A stretch of DNA of 46,425 nt from a virus. Lineage: Duplodnaviria > Heunggongvirae > Uroviricota > Caudoviricetes. How positions within the stretch are numbered: the first letter of the stretch is position 1; each line of letters begins with the position of its first letter. The position numbers were made by a program. Location: IMG/VR virus record IMGVR_UViG_2511231131_000010; one strand, 5' to 3'. This document shows positions 33,001 to 39,000 of the stretch, piece after piece.

Positions 33001-36000
33001 TGCGTCCAGTTCATCAATACCGGTCATCAGCGCCCTGGATTTCTCCAGTCCCTGATTGCGGCATTCAACACGGTCGACCACTTCCGGAAGGACATCATCA
33101 ATGTGAACCGGCTGAATGACGCCCTTTCCGGTCGACAGTGAGGCCATCATGTTCTGCGCATCCTTCAGGGCATCCTCGGCTGCTTCACAGGTATACGCAT
33201 CACGTAAATTCTGTAATGCTTCAGTCAGTGTTTTTTCTGCATCGCGCAGTGCGGCATTGCGCCGCAACGCTGCGACATAGTGCTCCAGTGAAGACTTCAC
33301 CCAGGTTTTGCGTCCGGTGTCGGTAATCACCGGGGCAAGTTCCGGCATCTCATTGCACAGCAGTACGGGGTCAATGACGCCGGATATGCGAGCCTGTCTG
33401 CAAATCCCCGCGTAAATATCCCGGTACTGACGCACAAAAAATACATCCGCCGGAAGTGTGGCCAGAATATCCATCACTTCCGGATCGGCCCCACGCAGAA
33501 AAAACGCACCGATGACAGCGCCTTCCAGGTCATCGTTACGCCATGCCGGGGTGTTCTGGCTGGTCATGCGGCAACACCTCCGATACGAGAACGGTAGCTG
33601 GGCCAGTTAAACGACAACCAGTTGCGCCCGCCATCGGTGATCCTGTCGGCAATCCGGGGACTGATGAACGCCCACAATTCTTCCGGTGAAAGGTTGCTGA
33701 TCAGGATAGTTGGCAAAATACCCTCATACCGGGCATTGATAATTTCCTGCAAAATGGCCATTTCAGCCGCACTGCCAAACTGAACGCCGACTTCGTCGAC
33801 AATCAGCAAATCCAGTGACGCATAATGCTCAATGACGTCATCCGCTGTTTTTTCACTGTCATTCCGCCAGCAGTTTTTCACAGCCCGGGTAAGGCGCATC
33901 ACGTCGGTGATCTCCACACTGGCCAGATAGTTACGGATGATGTGTTTTGCCATTGATACCGCCAGATGATTTTTCCCGGTACCGCAACTGCCGGTCATAA
34001 CAAGACTGGTACCGTTCTCCAGCATATCTGGCCAGTTCTCCGCATAGCGGCGACAGGCCGCAAGATTTCTGGCTGCGTCAGGATTAACCTCCAGATAATT
34101 ATCAAACTCGCAGTCCCGAAAACGCAGAGCAATTCCGGCGTTATCAGTCAGTTCTTCCGCCTTGAGGGACGACAGTTCCATGGTCAAATCACTGGCCTCA
34201 GCGATCAAGCAGTCAGGGCAGCATGAAATTTTTTCTCTGTCCTCGCCATTACGATCGATCCACACCAGTATATGCGTACGATATTTACCGTGTTTTTCGC
34301 AATATCCGCGACCTTCACGCATCAGGCAGGAACGATAAGGCCATGGCTTTTCGCCCTTCTGAGCAAATGCAATCTCTGCCCGTAACTCATCCATTTCTGC
34401 CCGTAACTCATCCATTCGCGCCTGTAGTCTTGTTTGTTTCTCACGTTGGTCAATCGTCATCATCGCTGTCACCTCAGAATGTCAATTTGTTACTGGATTT
34501 ACCGAATTTGTCAGACATGGCTCCCAGGCCAGCCAGGACATCGACCTGTCGCTGTCGCCCACCTCCGTGAGCGGCTGGCTGTTGCCAGTAATCTTCGAAG
34601 TGACGATCGGGTCCAAAGAACGTCGCAGCCTGCTTCACGAACTGTGTGCCGATATTTCCTGTAGCACGTACCCAGGCGGCATACCGCTTCACGCCATCAA
34701 GCATGGTCTCCGGTTTTATTCCCTCCCTGATACGGGCTTTCCAGGCTTTGAAGGCTGCTGACTTGGAATTGCCACCAGCACGTTTGGGATATTCCTGCCA
34801 GGCCTGTTCAAATTCCGGTGAATATTCCTGTCGGGCAGAACGCGCTGGCGCAGACGCGTCAGCGGATGCATCAATAGTGTTTTTAGTCTCCGTTGTAATC
34901 TCTGTAGTAATCTCTGTATTTGTATCAACATTCGGCGTATCCCCTGTTCCGTTATGACGTCGGGGGGTGTTCCGTTTTAACGTAATAGCTGTATCGCTGA
35001 TTGCATTATTGCTGTTACTTTCTGGCGAAACAGAAGAAGGTGTGGTGATGGCCGCAATTGCCTGTGGGTTGATCCCGACAAACAAAATATTGCTGCATTT
35101 CACCCCATCGAGCATTTCCACCGTGCGTAAATCCAGAGTAATAAACCCTGCATCGCGCAGACGCTTCAGCGCATCTGCGGTTTCCCTTTTCCCGAAACCA
35201 AACTGCTCAGCAAACGCCTGGTAGCTTCTTTGCAGTTTGTCGCCCTGAAAACGCTTGCGATATCCCAGCAACGCTCCGGTGTGCTCATCCCTGACCTCTG
35301 TCGGGCGGTACCAGTAAACGATCTCTGAAAGCAGAGCGATAGCCGTCGCATCCGGACGCCCACTGGGTAGTCGAATATATTTCCACCAGTTCGCAGGTGT
35401 AACATTGCCGGAAATATTAATTTGACCAATAGCCATAACTTCCGGTGTGGGGGCGTAACGGCTCATACAACCTCCTTCCGCGGCATGAGAATTGTGTAGC
35501 CACGCGCAGGTTGTAGTCTGGCTTTTGCATCAATAGTAAGCGTTGCAATTTTTCGGATATGAAGATAACCAGCTCTTTCCAGTGCCAGGGTTTCCCTGAA
35601 TATCGCTTGCTTAGAACAACAGCAGAAATCAGCAAGCACCCGATGATCAATAACTCTCTCGCCTTCACCGTCTGAAGAACCCGACATCAAAACACGCAAC
35701 ATAATCAGGCGCTGAATCGGGTTATCGAAAGCACATCCGCACACAAACTGAAAACAGTTCACGCCACACCTCCCAGACGCTTAAACATTTTTCCAGACAG
35801 AAATACCGCCAGAGGGTAACTGATGGTGTAGCTACGTCCCTGTAGTTCGCACACGACTTTCTGGCTTTCAGCGTTGACTAGGCAAACCCGCAGAACGTGA
35901 CCGTTGCTGGTGGCGAACCACTGCCCCACACGGGGGCAACGGTTGTATCGGTGATACAGGGAATTAACGATGTGGCGGATCATGGACGCACCTCCGCCGT

Positions 36001-39000
36001 AGTTACGTATTTAACCGGGCTACCTTTCATTGAGATGGTTTCACACATCTCTGCCGCTTTCAGTTCCGCTGTTTTTCTGGATTTATAGCGACGGTGCCAG
36101 ACAGATACATCCGTGCGAACTGATACATCGTTTCTGTATTCCGTAGTGGAGATGATGATTTCGTAACTAATCATGGGCGAACCTCCTTGTCAGAACCATT
36201 CAGCCTGGAATCAACAAGTGCAGCGCCAAAAACAGCATCACCAACACGGTCGTACAGTTTGCTAGCCAGCGGAGATTCAACGGCCTTAAGCATTGGATAA
36301 AGCTGGCTTGTCCAGATTTGATGGATTTCACGCAAATGCAGGTATACGCCTCTGGCGTTTCGTGCGACAGCTGACATATCAACCGCGTCAGCACCAGATA
36401 AATTCTTCTCCATCTGGTTAAAGGCGTTGATGTATGCCTCTTTGAACCGGGCTGCACGTTTGCCAGTAAAGCCCATAGCAAGGAACGCGAAGCCATCGCG
36501 GGTGATTTGATAGCAAGGTAGTTTGCGGCCTGTGCAATCGGTGTAATCACTGGGCTGAAAATTCAGCTCAGTGAATTCAACAGAGCACTCAAGCGTCTGG
36601 ATTTTTTGAATAACGTTTTTGTGCTGCTTGCAGAAATATTCGGCAACGGCCAAAGAAGAGGTAACAGCCTTCCCATGGATAACATCAATTTTAGAGTGAG
36701 TTTGGGTAGGGGTGGTTGCCATAGTGACATCCTCATGTGCGAATTTTGAAAACTCACCACATGGGACGCCAATCACAGAGGTGGTGAGACGTACAGGGTT
36801 GGCGTAACCGGTCGCACATGACCCCGGCGCATCTTTCGATGCCCCTGCACGCCCCACCATAATTTGGATGTGAGGAAACGTGCGCAAAAAAACCGCTGAA
36901 GCGCGGTTATGCGCATGTGCGAATTTCAGGACGCCAATCCCGGCACCCGCTTTATAAGGTGCGGAGACAGTGTAACGTCCCGAAATTGCAGAATCAATAT
37001 TTGGTCTTGAAATGATCATATAGCTGCTGATATCTTTAGAACTGTTCTTGGATGTTTCGGAGCCGTTTTATGCGAAACAGCTCCCCGTTATTGATGTTGA
37101 GTGAGCCGGGTTACTCCCGGCTTTTTTTCATCGCTGCCAACCAATAACCTGAAATAACCCCATTTTCGGGTGATACCAGCGAGTCCCTCGCGGTTCTGCT
37201 TCCTCCATAACCCGATAAAAAGCAGCCATAAACGGTTCCACAGCAACAATTGCGCGACGTGACAACAATCCGTCCGGCGTCATGAACTCATGTGTGTCTG
37301 TAGGAATTTGATAGGCGTTCACCAGATTGCGGCATTTATCATCTGACAAACCGGTTTTTGCTTTCAGTTGGCGATATCCGGCATAGCCCTCACGAATAGT
37401 GCCCTTTTTAATTTGCTCGACTGTTTCAGCAACGTGGCTGACTTTTTCTTCCACCTGAGTGATCCGTTTCTGTTGGCGAACGGCTTCAAGAGCCATCGCG
37501 GCAACCATTTCGATTTCGCTCATTGGCTTACGGATCTGTTCTTCCAGTTCGCGCCAGCGATCTACCAGGCGAGCTGTGAATTCAGGACAGAGCTGTGCGA
37601 CGACAATGATGCTGTCGCGCTTACCTCGTTCACCTTCGAATACATACGCGCTAGAAAATCGGCGAGGCCCAAGTGATTGTTTATTCTCAATTTCCACAGT
37701 CTGTGGAAATTGGATGATTCCCTTTTTAGCCAGTGTTTCAATAGTTCTCTTAACACTATCTGGTCGGCTTCCCACCAGCTCTGCGATCTCAACGCTGGTC
37801 ATGGATGCTTTGCCGTTAAAAATTGCGGTGTTCATTGTTTATCTCCTGCGTGTATTCCATCCGCTCTGTGTGGTGAACTTGGATTTAGGCTTTTGCGTAA
37901 CAAGTTAGGAATTCCATCTTCAGGGTGAGGATAAAGATCTGGCCTTAAGCCATGAGGCGTAACCTTCCATGCAACTACTTCACATACTCGTAAAACGAAA
38001 CGAGCAGGAATTGTGCTTTTTGAAAACCACTGATTCACCGCTTGCGGCGTCACACCAAGATTTCGCGCTATGGCATTTTGCGCAATTAATGCACGAAGTT
38101 TGTCGTAATCATTTCCTTCCATAACAAAGCACCAATATTAACTTTATAAATCAAGAATACATCAAGTTTAAATTAACATGCAAGTTACAAAAGGATCGAA
38201 TACACTAAAATCAAGTAAAGATTTATCCTTGTAAAGAAACCCACAGGATTTGGTCATGAAGAACGTCAAAAACACGGAAAATCGAATAGCCGCGATGCTG
38301 AAAGCAAAAGGATGGACTCAGGCTCAACTGGCCCGCAAGTTAGGTGTGAGTGCGCAATCAGTGCAGTACTGGACAACAGGAAAAACATTTCCACGGAGTG
38401 ATAAGCTCGCGCATTTATCAGAGATTAGCGGTTATCCACAATCCTGGTTCTTAGGTGAAGACTCCTCACCAACCTTTTCCTCGCAAGAGAAACACCAGAC
38501 AAGAACAGATAGCGTCGTATTTAATGTCCTTGATGTTGAGTTTAGTTGCGGTGATGGAACTCATGTCCGTGGTGACTTGATAGATGTAGTGCGCTCAATA
38601 GAACTTGATCCTGAATATGCCCGACGTCTTGTTGGAAATCGGGCATTCAAAAATATAGAAATAGGTAACGCCAGAGGAGACAGTATGGCTCCCACAATCT
38701 CACCTGGCGACCTTCTTTTTCTTGATAAGACAGTAACTTATTTTGATGGCGATGGTATTTATGCATTTTGTTTTGATGGAGAATGCTACGTGAAAAGGCT
38801 TCAAAAAATTGGAAGCAAAATCATGGTGTTATCTGATAACCCCAATTATCAACCATGGAGTATCGAAAAAGAGGGGTTAGCTCTGCTTTATATCCAGTCT
38901 AAAGTGATCTCATCAGTACCATTCAACATAAACAGATTTGGTTAGTCTTTGATTTTAACGGGCTTTGCCCGTTTTTTTTCTGCCTGAAATATACGATATC

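Follow-up and report, generated by a model that had tools for sequence, protein, structure and literature searches.

The front third of a 282-aa ORF located between the cro-like gene and the initiator gene of the analyzed viral DNA (46,425 nucleotides, hereafter the window) corresponds to a known small-RNA switch, composed of IsrK and a C4 antisense RNA, that probably gates a Rha regulator. We consider it likely that the whole region serves a phiP27-like (lambdoid) E. coli prophage as an accessory-regulator module of its rightward early operon, with an RNA switch of the P1-immI, P4 or Gifsy-1-isrK type ahead of a Rha-family regulator gene as its core. The original prediction had this slot occupied by two Rha proteins and ORFs of unknown function; instead, its central feature appears to be the IsrK/C4 switch, which lies within the second Rha gene and has its targets on the Rha ribosome-binding site. 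The genes of the locus are as follows.

34474-35466, minus strand: O-like initiator, 330 aa (ORF call)
35463-35762, minus strand: 99-aa ORF (PHROG 4617, 1e-28)
35759-35983, minus strand: 74-aa ORF (PHROG 1153)
35980-36174, minus strand: 64-aa ORF, translationally coupled (PHROG 7046, 2e-48)
36171-37019, minus strand: "Ash-Rha" ORF, 282 aa (Pfam Ash at residues 16-110, Rha domain at residues 120-205)
36171-36722, minus strand: Rha-family regulator core, 183 aa (Pfam Phage_pRha, PF09669, 111.8 bits against a cut-off of 29.9; TIGR02681, 113.6 against 45.95)
37128-37835, minus strand: DNA-binding protein of Roi/Ant type, 235 aa; its winged-helix N-domain is weakly Rha-like (PHROG 63; sub-threshold in Pfam)
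37832-38122, minus strand: cro-like HTH gene, 96 aa (Pfam YdaS_toxin 1.4e-12, weak P22_Cro match; PHROG 35, transcriptional repressor)
38250-38945, plus strand: cI-like repressor gene (S24 self-cleavage domain in a profile search)
39092-39640, plus strand: HTH protein, 182 aa, just beyond cI (PHROG annotated 'CII-like regulator', 4e-77)

The cro-like gene opens the rightward early operon, divergent from the cI-like gene, and is followed on the minus strand by the Roi/Rha-like gene, a 109-bp gap, the 282-aa ORF, the 64-, 74- and 99-aa ORFs and the initiator gene. The predicted ORF positions were confirmed, RefSeq annotating the identical set of CDSs in an E. coli prophage with 98.6% identity. 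The predicted tight coupling of the three small ORFs also held: 4-nt ATGA or GTGA overlaps join the 282-aa ORF through all three of them and the 99-aa ORF to the initiator gene, and an ATGA overlap is likewise shared by the cro-like stop codon and the Roi start. The gene order is kept, with near-identical DNA, in several Stx2 phages, phiP27, PhiR49_2 and ASU11, and a query with the 3.3-kb region (35000-38300) matched up to five places per E. coli genome. The O, DnaC and DnaB genes are located downstream of the RNA cassette, within the pR operon.

The elements of the cassette lie on the coding strand, with the IsrK and C4 matches adjacent to each other.

36969-36997, minus strand: IsrK-type promoter candidate (TTGATT at 36992-36997, 17-nt spacer, TACACT at 36969-36974; predicted start at G36962)
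36886-36962, minus strand: IsrK-family sRNA (Rfam RF01394, 62.3 bits against a gathering threshold of 50)
36777-36864, minus strand: C4-family antisense RNA (Rfam RF01695, 75.1 bits against a gathering threshold of 45; full length, 1-87)
36720-36772, minus strand: target region with a2 (36766-36772), b2 (36733-36742), the SD sequence GAGGA (36730-36734) and an internal ATG (36720-36722)

The promoter hexamers agree with the consensus at 8 of 12 positions, and both are kept in all aligned relatives despite differing upstream contexts. IsrK comprises a first hairpin, a second hairpin carrying a1 (36931-36937), a single-stranded b1 (36914-36922) and an intrinsic terminator (36886-36908), which was recovered separately by a terminator scan and lies between a1/b1 and C4. 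C4 has a 17-bp outer stem and two inner hairpins; a hairpin loop holds b' (36812-36821), the junction holds a' (36799-36805), and CCACC is conserved near the 3' end, on the 3' side of the outer stem. Complementarity of a' and b' extends to a1/b1, within IsrK, as well as to the downstream a2/b2, covering 7 bp for a and 9-10 bp for b both in the window and in all 38 relatives described below, and b2 overlaps the SD sequence, which ends 7 nt before the internal ATG. Note that the c4-a1b1 motif model (RF03163) was sub-threshold in the window (23.9 vs. 46.7 bits; Gifsy-1 scored 48.1 and P4 44.1), and the a1 and b1 elements are present and co-varying.

We counted base pairs in 38 distinct related prophage sequences, all retrieved by homology to Rha (77-100% aa); they are not mutually independent. 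Among these sequences, double changes were found in 6 of the 7 a1-a' pairs (98.1% paired), 7 of the 9 b1-b' pairs (98.5%) and 7 of the 10 b'-b2 pairs (97.9%), and the 7 a'-a2 pairs were complementary in each sequence, while slid controls were ~40% paired. The outer stem of C4 was 99.8% paired with 4 double-change pairs, and the inner hairpin showed double changes in 4 of 5 pairs. Furthermore, a', a1 and a2, as well as b', b1 and b2, were always of one matching allele per locus, with four a alleles and seven b alleles occurring in 12 combinations.

Such diversity among close relatives is the pattern expected under diversifying selection for specificity, and raises the reading that the cassette is mainly an inter-prophage specificity or superinfection device and not part of the phage's own lysis-lysogeny decision; resident C4 would silence the same-allele Rha of incoming phages, and IsrK may activate another prophage. 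P1/P7 heteroimmunity is located in c4 and its targets (PMC12197685), an SfV match is annotated 'immunity region', and the several matching places per E. coli genome (up to 5 for the 3.3-kb query) point the same way. We regard this reading as rather unlikely; it is compatible with, and does not exclude, the RNA switch, in which allele diversity would give each prophage its own specificity, as the P1/P7 precedent suggests.

The first 99 codons of the 282-aa ORF cover the IsrK promoter, IsrK, C4 and a2/b2, and the Pfam Ash match coincides with both RNA genes. The possibility has to be weighed that the slot of CII is filled by proteins only, namely two Rha-family regulators, one of them a genuine two-domain Ash-Rha protein, and three small proteins, with the RNA-family matches reflecting coding sequence. 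The long frame is indeed open in all 45 unique relatives, with no stops, whereas the remaining two frames contain 33 and 47 distinct stop contexts; indels come in multiples of three, or as 1+2; and 'Ash' families exist in Pfam and PHROGs. In addition, the long-ORF start has a good SD and is ATGA-coupled in several relatives, an SD or ATGA overlap accompanying its ATG in at least five different upstream contexts. On the other hand, the ATG of the window's own long ORF lacks an SD, and the Ash part shows neither codon periodicity (0.58/0.60/0.59, vs. 0.23/0.20/0.54 in the Rha core) nor third-position bias, its variation being compensatory for the RNA helices and the three-way intermolecular pairing. 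The Ash profile matched over the RNA cassette in every case tested, including the old "cI" ORF of P4 that spans CI RNA; the P4 immunity factor is reportedly the RNA and not this ORF (Ghisotti/Deho 1992 and Forti 1995 are said to have established this). In Gifsy-1, moreover, this stretch is read in a shifted frame, and the peptide sequence varies (PMC4825925). Taken together, we judge the protein-only reading quite improbable; a real Ash-Rha fusion protein may nevertheless be made, since the frame is strictly open and several relatives have SD- and ATGA-coupled starts.

Because the cassette is common in E. coli prophages, its recognition corrects an annotation and does not describe a new kind of system: the Ash stretch of 'Ash-Rha' ORFs coincides with the IsrK/C4 RNAs. 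The regulatory regions of Stx phages of 'Eru' types, which carry Rha or Rha/Ash proteins beside cI (BMC Genomics 2022, PMC8951638), and phiP27 L14-L16 have the same gene order as the window; however, Ash is treated in that paper as a protein domain of unknown function.

The RNA switch can be outlined by analogy with P1, P4 and Gifsy-1. Read-through beyond the IsrK terminator would yield C4 RNA, which would pair with a2/b2 and block Rha translation, perhaps also promoting termination, and terminated IsrK, with its decoy target copies, would titrate C4 and turn translation on. More speculatively, the open frame could allow ribosomes arriving on pR-derived mRNA to read through the switch, thereby overriding it. 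Alternatively, transcription termination, as with P4 CI and N15 CA RNA, might be the main mode of the cassette in place of a translation block; what it would then govern is transcription reaching the Rha gene and the replication genes beyond it. An intrinsic terminator does lie between a1/b1 and C4; P4, whose CI RNA acts by premature termination, shares the IsrK-like leader and C4 layout; and since the cassette is upstream of O, DnaC and DnaB in the pR operon, polarity would affect replication. However, b2 overlaps the SD directly, and termination can coexist with a translation block, which in P1 is said to bring about Rho-dependent polarity. Supplying IsrK in trans in Gifsy-1 raised transcript levels ~8-fold, far below its 140-fold effect on anrP translation (Hershko-Shalev et al. 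2016, PMC4825925). We consider termination as the principal mode unlikely.

The same cassette precedes AnrP in Gifsy-1 and epsilon in P4, and was also found in phiP27, ASU11, Stx2_112808 and PhiR49_2. The isrK-orf45-anrP locus of Gifsy-1 (Salmonella) has the same Rfam architecture as the window, with c4-a1b1/IsrK, a terminator, C4 and an SD-proximal target, and the likeness extends to the common 'a' allele UUGGCGU, the conserved orf45 start AUGGUGGGG and an open frame through C4 as far as the effector start. The compensatory pairs G28/C162 and G31/C159 given for Gifsy-1 in that paper (PMC4825925) align with a1/a' positions in the window; in the passages searched, phage P1 is unmentioned and the processed ~80-nt species is not described as C4. 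The two loci differ in that the Gifsy-1 cassette is downstream of the late antiterminator Q, whereas that of the window is an early-operon element lying between cro/Roi and the replication genes. The Gifsy-1 effector is an ORF6N-domain protein without similarity to the window's Rha core, and orf45 ends at AUGA, whereas the frame in the window is fused to Rha and reaches 159 nt further upstream.

The P4 immunity region (PLE leader with seqA, CI RNA with seqB, seqC, epsilon) has IsrK (60.8 bits), c4-a1b1 (44.1) and C4 (74.9) in the same order, and its ORF through the RNA, which Pfam Ash matches, ends overlapping the derepression gene epsilon. However, P4 is a satellite whose RNA is said to work through transcription termination, and epsilon (PF25738) targets the helper phage P2's repressor. 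The P1/P7 immI operon (c4 RNA, icd, ant1/ant2) was reportedly studied by Citron and Schuster in 1990. As described in part in a review (PMC12197685), it also has an antisense RNA with two recognition elements, complementary to copies upstream (a1/b1) and downstream (a2/b2), with b2 located at a ribosome-binding site; immunity is allele-specific, and the effector can be made from either of two in-frame starts. In contrast to the window, P1 is a plasmid prophage with icd as the first target and C1 as the repressor on which Ant acts. The window's cassette belongs to a lambdoid pR operon whose CI is LexA-like, and the ribosome-binding site serving as target is that of a Rha-family gene.

The protein presumably under the control of the cassette may be an antirepressor-like effector. 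The genes beneath cassette matches in 280 phage records were mostly annotated as antirepressor, Rha or regulator, and the Rha core itself gave a weak match to the P22 antirepressor C-domain (P22_AR_C, E 0.0066). It shows no homology to AnrP of Gifsy-1, to epsilon of P4 or, so far as this was compared, to Ant of P1, and an antirepressor role is therefore suggested by context, the cassette coming before Ant, epsilon and AnrP in known systems, and by the weak P22_AR_C match. More speculatively, the Rha protein could be a lysis-promoting factor; induction would not need an antirepressor, given the S24 self-cleavage domain of the cI-like repressor. Rha profiles place the domain start ~16 residues after the internal Met. 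Of the two Rha-like N-domains claimed at the outset, that of the second gene is Rha but not N-terminal in the long ORF, and that of the first scored below the Pfam Phage_pRha cut-off (25.6 vs. 29.9 bits), with no NCBIfam match.

This first gene matches PHROG 63 'anti-repressor Ant' (3e-46), and its phiP27 orthologue passes the Phage_pRha cut-off (32.5 bits). Its counterparts in PhiR49_2 and ASU11 are named Roi, and its variation is mostly at the third codon position, a coding-type periodicity. The C-termini of the two proteins are unrelated, as had been proposed: BLASTP found only a 31-aa N-terminal similarity (E 0.006), and separate PHROGs cover the two C-termini.

The three small ORFs are real, coupled genes, and none of them is CII. 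Variation in the 74-aa ORF is concentrated at the third codon position, a trend shared by the 64- and 99-aa ORFs, which vary little. The 64-aa ORF is optional and mobile, being upstream of Ash-Rha in one relative (L019); its AF2 model (pLDDT 86) is a predicted beta-beta-alpha-beta fold that gave no PDB match. The 74-aa ORF precedes the initiator gene in all 80 related loci and is predicted to form a helix and a small SH3/KOW-like beta-barrel (pLDDT 77.6); neither of the two models is a helix-turn-helix. The 99-aa ORF is winged-helix-like, aligns with the N-terminal portion of PHROG 4617, whose members are replication initiators, and is 29% identical to the N-terminus of the PhiR49_2 O protein. 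It was found in 30 of the 80 loci, only with the full-length 330-aa initiator type, and some such loci lack it; by its sequence, it is an optional companion of this initiator, related to initiator N-domains. The label 'unknown function' fits the 64-aa ORF, whose PHROG is so annotated, but does not wholly fit the 99-aa ORF. Searches of Pfam, PHROGs and NCBIfam (E up to 10) returned no CII match when the five ORFs that separate cro from the initiator were queried, and the domain searches of the small ORFs proposed beforehand as a check thus bore out the predicted absence of a CII-like protein, in agreement with the folds and the initiator-like 99-aa ORF. A CII analogue may lie outside this slot, since the 182-aa HTH protein beyond cI falls in a 'CII-like regulator' PHROG.

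Two further features were found on the opposite strand.

37103-37131, plus strand: intrinsic terminator for plus-strand (antisense) transcription only (terminator scan)
37007-37131, plus strand: candidate oop-like antisense sRNA unit (promoter-like site, two hairpins, terminator)

The terminator, a strong one with an 8-pair stem (37103-37123) and, on the plus strand, a T run after it, exists as predicted, but in the direction of transcription it is the first Rha-like gene that it follows, and not the second. Read on the coding strand, the same hairpin is preceded by an A run and has no U tail after it, and it lies directly 3' of the Roi-like stop codon. It may be the end of an oop-like antisense RNA, which is a more speculative part of our model. 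The candidate promoter (37007-37036; TTGAAA-18-TATCTT with TG) is a weak match to the consensus (9 of 12), the predicted start is at ~37043, the fold z is -3.3, and the unit gave no Rfam match above noise. The map position after cro and before the initiator, as well as a small candidate antisense unit that ends in an intrinsic terminator where the gene following cro finishes, recall lambda cII and oop. However, the window slot has no CII homologue, and the candidate RNA overlaps coding sequence by the stop codon region only and lacks sequence similarity to oop. In phiP27-type relatives, another stem sequence is located at the same site, and the T run is again on the plus strand.

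The window is an E. coli prophage of lambdoid (phiP27-like) type, in which the genes from the repressor to the replication functions are arranged as follows.

Gene order from the repressor to the helicase
38250-38945, S24-peptidase cI-like repressor
37832-38122, minus strand, cro-like HTH gene, divergent from the cI-like repressor
37128-37835, minus strand, Roi/Ant-type gene (235 aa), separated by a 109-bp gap from the next gene
36171-37019, minus strand, 282-aa ORF
Between the 282-aa ORF and the initiator, minus strand, 64-, 74- and 99-aa ORFs in this transcription order
After the 99-aa ORF, minus strand, 330-aa O-like initiator, then DnaC-like loader and DnaB helicase

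ATGA or GTGA overlaps were found at the cro/Roi junction and at every junction from the 282-aa ORF to the initiator. The same arrangement is carried by E. coli O111:H8 (98.6% identical), PhiR49_2, phiP27, ASU11 and several Stx-converting phages, and 120 of the 5426 complete E. coli genomes matched 80% or more of the 3.3-kb query, indicating that the five ORFs are real, conserved and previously annotated. Variation fell mainly at the third codon position in the Rha-family part of the 282-aa ORF (the Rha core), the Roi-like gene and the 74-aa ORF; the 64- and 99-aa ORFs showed a like trend, but with little variation to score. The original prediction, that two Rha genes and three small ORFs stand in place of cII, was therefore largely right about the genes, which are present, conserved and annotated in relatives. 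What it overlooked is an RNA switch lying within the "second Rha gene", as revealed by Rfam matches. What matters in the slot is this switch, which is of a known kind and is hidden by the annotation.

Specifically, an Rfam scan placed two RNA genes above the gathering score on the coding strand, within the first 99 codons of the 282-aa ORF (the Ash part).

Elements of the IsrK/C4 cassette
Promoter-like site, TTGATT-17-TACACT, by sequence reading
36886-36962, minus (coding) strand, IsrK (RF01394), Rfam 62.3 bits; two hairpins bearing a1 (UUGGCGU) and b1 (UCGCACAUG), then an intrinsic terminator
36777-36864, minus (coding) strand, C4 antisense RNA (RF01695), Rfam 75.1 bits; b' (UCAUGUGCGA) in a hairpin loop and a' (ACGCCAA) in the junction
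Targets a2 (UUGGCGU) and b2 (UCGCACAUGA), the latter overlapping the Shine-Dalgarno (SD) sequence of the internal start

The IsrK terminator was recovered independently by a terminator scan. The Pfam 'Ash' match, at residues 16-110 of the 282-aa ORF, covers the same stretch as IsrK and C4, and the Rha domain starts only past an internal Met (ATG at 36720-36722), which has its own GAGGA SD. Read from the sequence of the window, the cassette has the layout of the P1 immI region.

Co-variation was assessed in 80 viral contigs encoding Rha-core relatives, from which 38 distinct upstream regions were aligned. Across these regions, double-sided changes were found in 6 of 7 a1-a' pairs (98.1% of cells paired), 7 of 9 b1-b' pairs (98.5%) and 7 of 10 b'-b2 pairs (97.9%), and the C4 stems showed compensatory changes as well, while controls in which the partner was slid by 1-3 columns gave about 40% pairing. 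The a2 site was complementary to a' at 7 of 7 positions in every sequence. Four a and seven b alleles occurred in 12 combinations, and the three sites of each locus matched one another. This three-way co-variation is the pattern that RNA-RNA recognition predicts. The shuffle statistics overstate independence because the sequences are related; despite this kinship, the allele structure is unambiguous. Given the matched alleles, cross-regulation is predicted between prophages that share an a/b allele and not between those that differ. Separately, a deletion variant was noticed in one related locus (L024, ~2040-2500), where the 3' part of the Roi-like gene joins the IsrK terminator region directly. 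This variant lacks the IsrK promoter and a1/b1 and retains C4 and a2/b2, so that it can be regarded as a natural 'no decoy' mutant.

The mechanism is already known, with P1, P4 and Gifsy-1 as precedents, and the switch is not new in kind, since it occurs widely and falls into curated families; publications on both RNA motifs go back to 2010 (PMC2864571). In Gifsy-1, matches to c4-a1b1, IsrK and C4 lie in the same order upstream of AnrP, and the Gifsy-1 and window loci align throughout the cassette. Compensatory mutants at G28/C162 and G31/C159 are described in a Gifsy-1 study (PMC4825925), and these positions map onto a1 and a' of the window. However, the Gifsy-1 cassette lies downstream of Q, whereas that of the window is in the early operon, and the effectors differ: AnrP is an ORF6N protein unrelated to the Rha core, and homology between the two was rejected on BLASTP (E = 4). 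P4 (L087) gave the same three RNA matches.

These comparisons also bear on 'Ash', which was regarded as a protein domain of unknown function in a 2022 survey of Stx-phage regulatory regions (PMC8951638). One preprint, a P4-satellite survey, used PF10554 for the P4 epsilon antirepressor. We rejected this identity because the P4 match to Pfam Ash (Phage_ASH, PF10554) falls on the historical 137-aa 'cI' ORF, which overlies the CI RNA and whose end overlaps epsilon (the P4 coordinates concerned are 8168-8584 and 7888-8175); the Ash profile gave no match on epsilon, which is PF25738. The 'epsilon' hits of that survey may accordingly mark the RNA cassette. In phiP27, ASU11, Stx2_112808 and PhiR49_2, each 'Ash-Rha' ORF overlies IsrK and C4 matches. 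Wherever it was tested, the 'Ash domain' is the translated image of the IsrK/C4 cassette, which accounts for the absence of any function assigned to it. In the text searched of a 2025 review, IsrK and c4 are listed separately and are not linked (PMC12197685). Useful by-products of the analysis are this Ash/RNA equivalence, the allele matrix and a conserved through-frame. In a prophage group that includes Stx-converting phages, the gene beside the immunity region is annotated only as Rha or 'Ash' protein, and recognition of IsrK/C4 alters the choice of deletions and mutations for studies of induction and Stx-phage regulation.

For the cassette itself, our data directly show only anatomy and co-variation, and its operation is modeled on P1, P4 and Gifsy-1. 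By this analogy, read-through of the IsrK terminator would yield C4, which would pair with a2/b2 and block the Rha ribosome-binding site; IsrK, with the decoy a1/b1, would lift the C4 block, and the a/b alleles would give specificity. A weaker inference is that the Rha protein may be an antirepressor-like factor, because effectors behind the cassette elsewhere are Ant, epsilon and AnrP, and because of the annotations under 280 phage matches and a sub-threshold match to the P22 antirepressor C-domain. Since CI has a self-cleavage domain, such an antirepressor would be an added layer and not the sole induction route. A literature search on Rha function gave mostly helicase and haemagglutinin papers.

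We also asked how the Ash part is read. Entropy by codon position was 0.58/0.60/0.59 in the Ash part versus 0.23/0.20/0.54 in the Rha core; with codon periodicity absent from the Ash part, its peptide sequence is therefore under no detectable selection. That the Ash part is simply non-coding was nevertheless rejected, because the frame is strictly open: the Rha-phase frame had 0 stops across 297 nt upstream in 45 of 45 unique sequences, while the other two frames of the cassette had 33 and 47 distinct stop contexts. Indels in the cassette among aligned relatives were multiples of three or a 1+2 pair. In five or more distinct upstream contexts, an SD stands before the long-ORF ATG or this ATG overlaps the stop of the preceding gene; the long-ORF ATG of the window itself has no SD. 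The Ash part was accordingly treated as translated through without peptide constraint, and we conclude that ribosome passage through the cassette probably matters and the resulting peptide does not. The Gifsy-1 study describes 'orf45' in like terms, with a conserved nucleotide sequence, a variable amino-acid sequence and a downstream gene that needs orf45 translation for its own (PMC4825925). A bolder and rather unlikely reading is that the cassette is a dual-use sequence discriminating transcripts by origin. Ribosomes on pR-derived mRNA would traverse it from the long-ORF ATG, which in most genomic contexts is coupled to an SD and lies a short way ahead of the IsrK promoter, suppressing the IsrK terminator and melting C4, so that Rha would be made as the long isoform in lytic growth. 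Transcripts from the internal promoter, which lack the long-ORF start, would give only the regulatory RNAs, which would hold Rha off in the lysogen. If so, Pfam 'Ash' would be the translated shadow of an RNA switch in P4-like satellites and lambdoid phages alike.

In the gap upstream of the cassette, a stem-loop at 37103-37123 followed by a T run makes a strong intrinsic terminator for the plus strand alone. At this position, relatives of the phiP27 type have another stem, whose T run is likewise on the plus strand; a third upstream context has no hairpin here. A promoter-like site at 37007-37036 (weak match) would yield an RNA of ~88 nt predicted to form two hairpins (z = -3.3 for the fold), similar to lambda oop in position and orientation. 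The unit is thus a tentative candidate, with the balance somewhat against it, for an oop-like antisense RNA. On inspection, nutR/boxB was rejected for the hairpin at 37104-37122, which has no boxA-like sequence and an AGUAA loop that is not boxB-like.

The absence of CII between cro and the initiator was upheld. None of the small ORFs is CII, and even with E values as high as 10 admitted, searches of Pfam, PHROGs and NCBIfam with the ORFs of the slot gave no CII match. PDB sequence searches with the three small ORFs, the Roi-like protein and the Rha core gave nothing useful. The 74-aa ORF, whose family is limited to enterobacterial prophages, precedes the initiator gene in 80 of 80 related loci, regardless of which N-domain the initiator has, and may be part of the replication module instead of the regulatory one. 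Its model is a helix plus an SH3/KOW-like barrel (pLDDT 77.6; only one of the five models was confident), with only weak KOW/SH3/Tudor matches in a fold search (best E 8e-3). The 64-aa ORF is optional and shifts position between loci, and its predicted beta-beta-alpha-beta model gave no match in the fold search. On these predicted structures, an HTH fold is excluded for both, and no function was assigned.

The 99-aa ORF gave a match to a PHROG of replication initiators, in their N-terminal part. It (35463-35762) resembles the winged-helix N-terminal part of the alternative PhiR49_2 O protein, which shares with the 330-aa initiator (34474-35466, minus strand) only the C-terminal ~130 residues, almost identical; this suggests mosaic exchange of origin-binding domains. 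The 99-aa ORF occurs solely alongside the full-length 330-aa initiator type, yet is missing from some such loci. A junction motif, ~GAGGTGCGTCCATGATCCGC, also recurs, at which the upstream protein ends ...EVRP and the downstream one begins MIR.... It lies at 36160-36185 and 35970-35995 in the window and upstream of the Ash-Rha ATG in related loci L019, L033, L044 and L048, joining Rha to the 64-aa ORF, the 64-aa to the 74-aa ORF, and either the 64-aa ORF or Rha to Ash-Rha. The motif has the look of a common border at which modules are shuffled.

A search of the cI-cro interval for operator repeats found none at the settings used. Just past cI, an XRE/DicA-like HTH protein (182 aa; 39092-39640, plus strand) matches PHROG 4836, 'CII-like regulator' (4e-77), and its ASU11 counterpart is annotated 'putative CII repressor'; it could be a functional CII analogue or merely another repressor. 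No tRNA was found in the front part of the 282-aa ORF, the only tRNAs of the window lying at 28021-28270. These three genes (Met-CAT, Arg-TCG and Arg-TCT) adjoin an STnc100 sRNA match (137.7 bits), and the whole stretch (27754-28270, minus strand) is similar to the cluster of tRNA genes that Stx phages carry ahead of stx.
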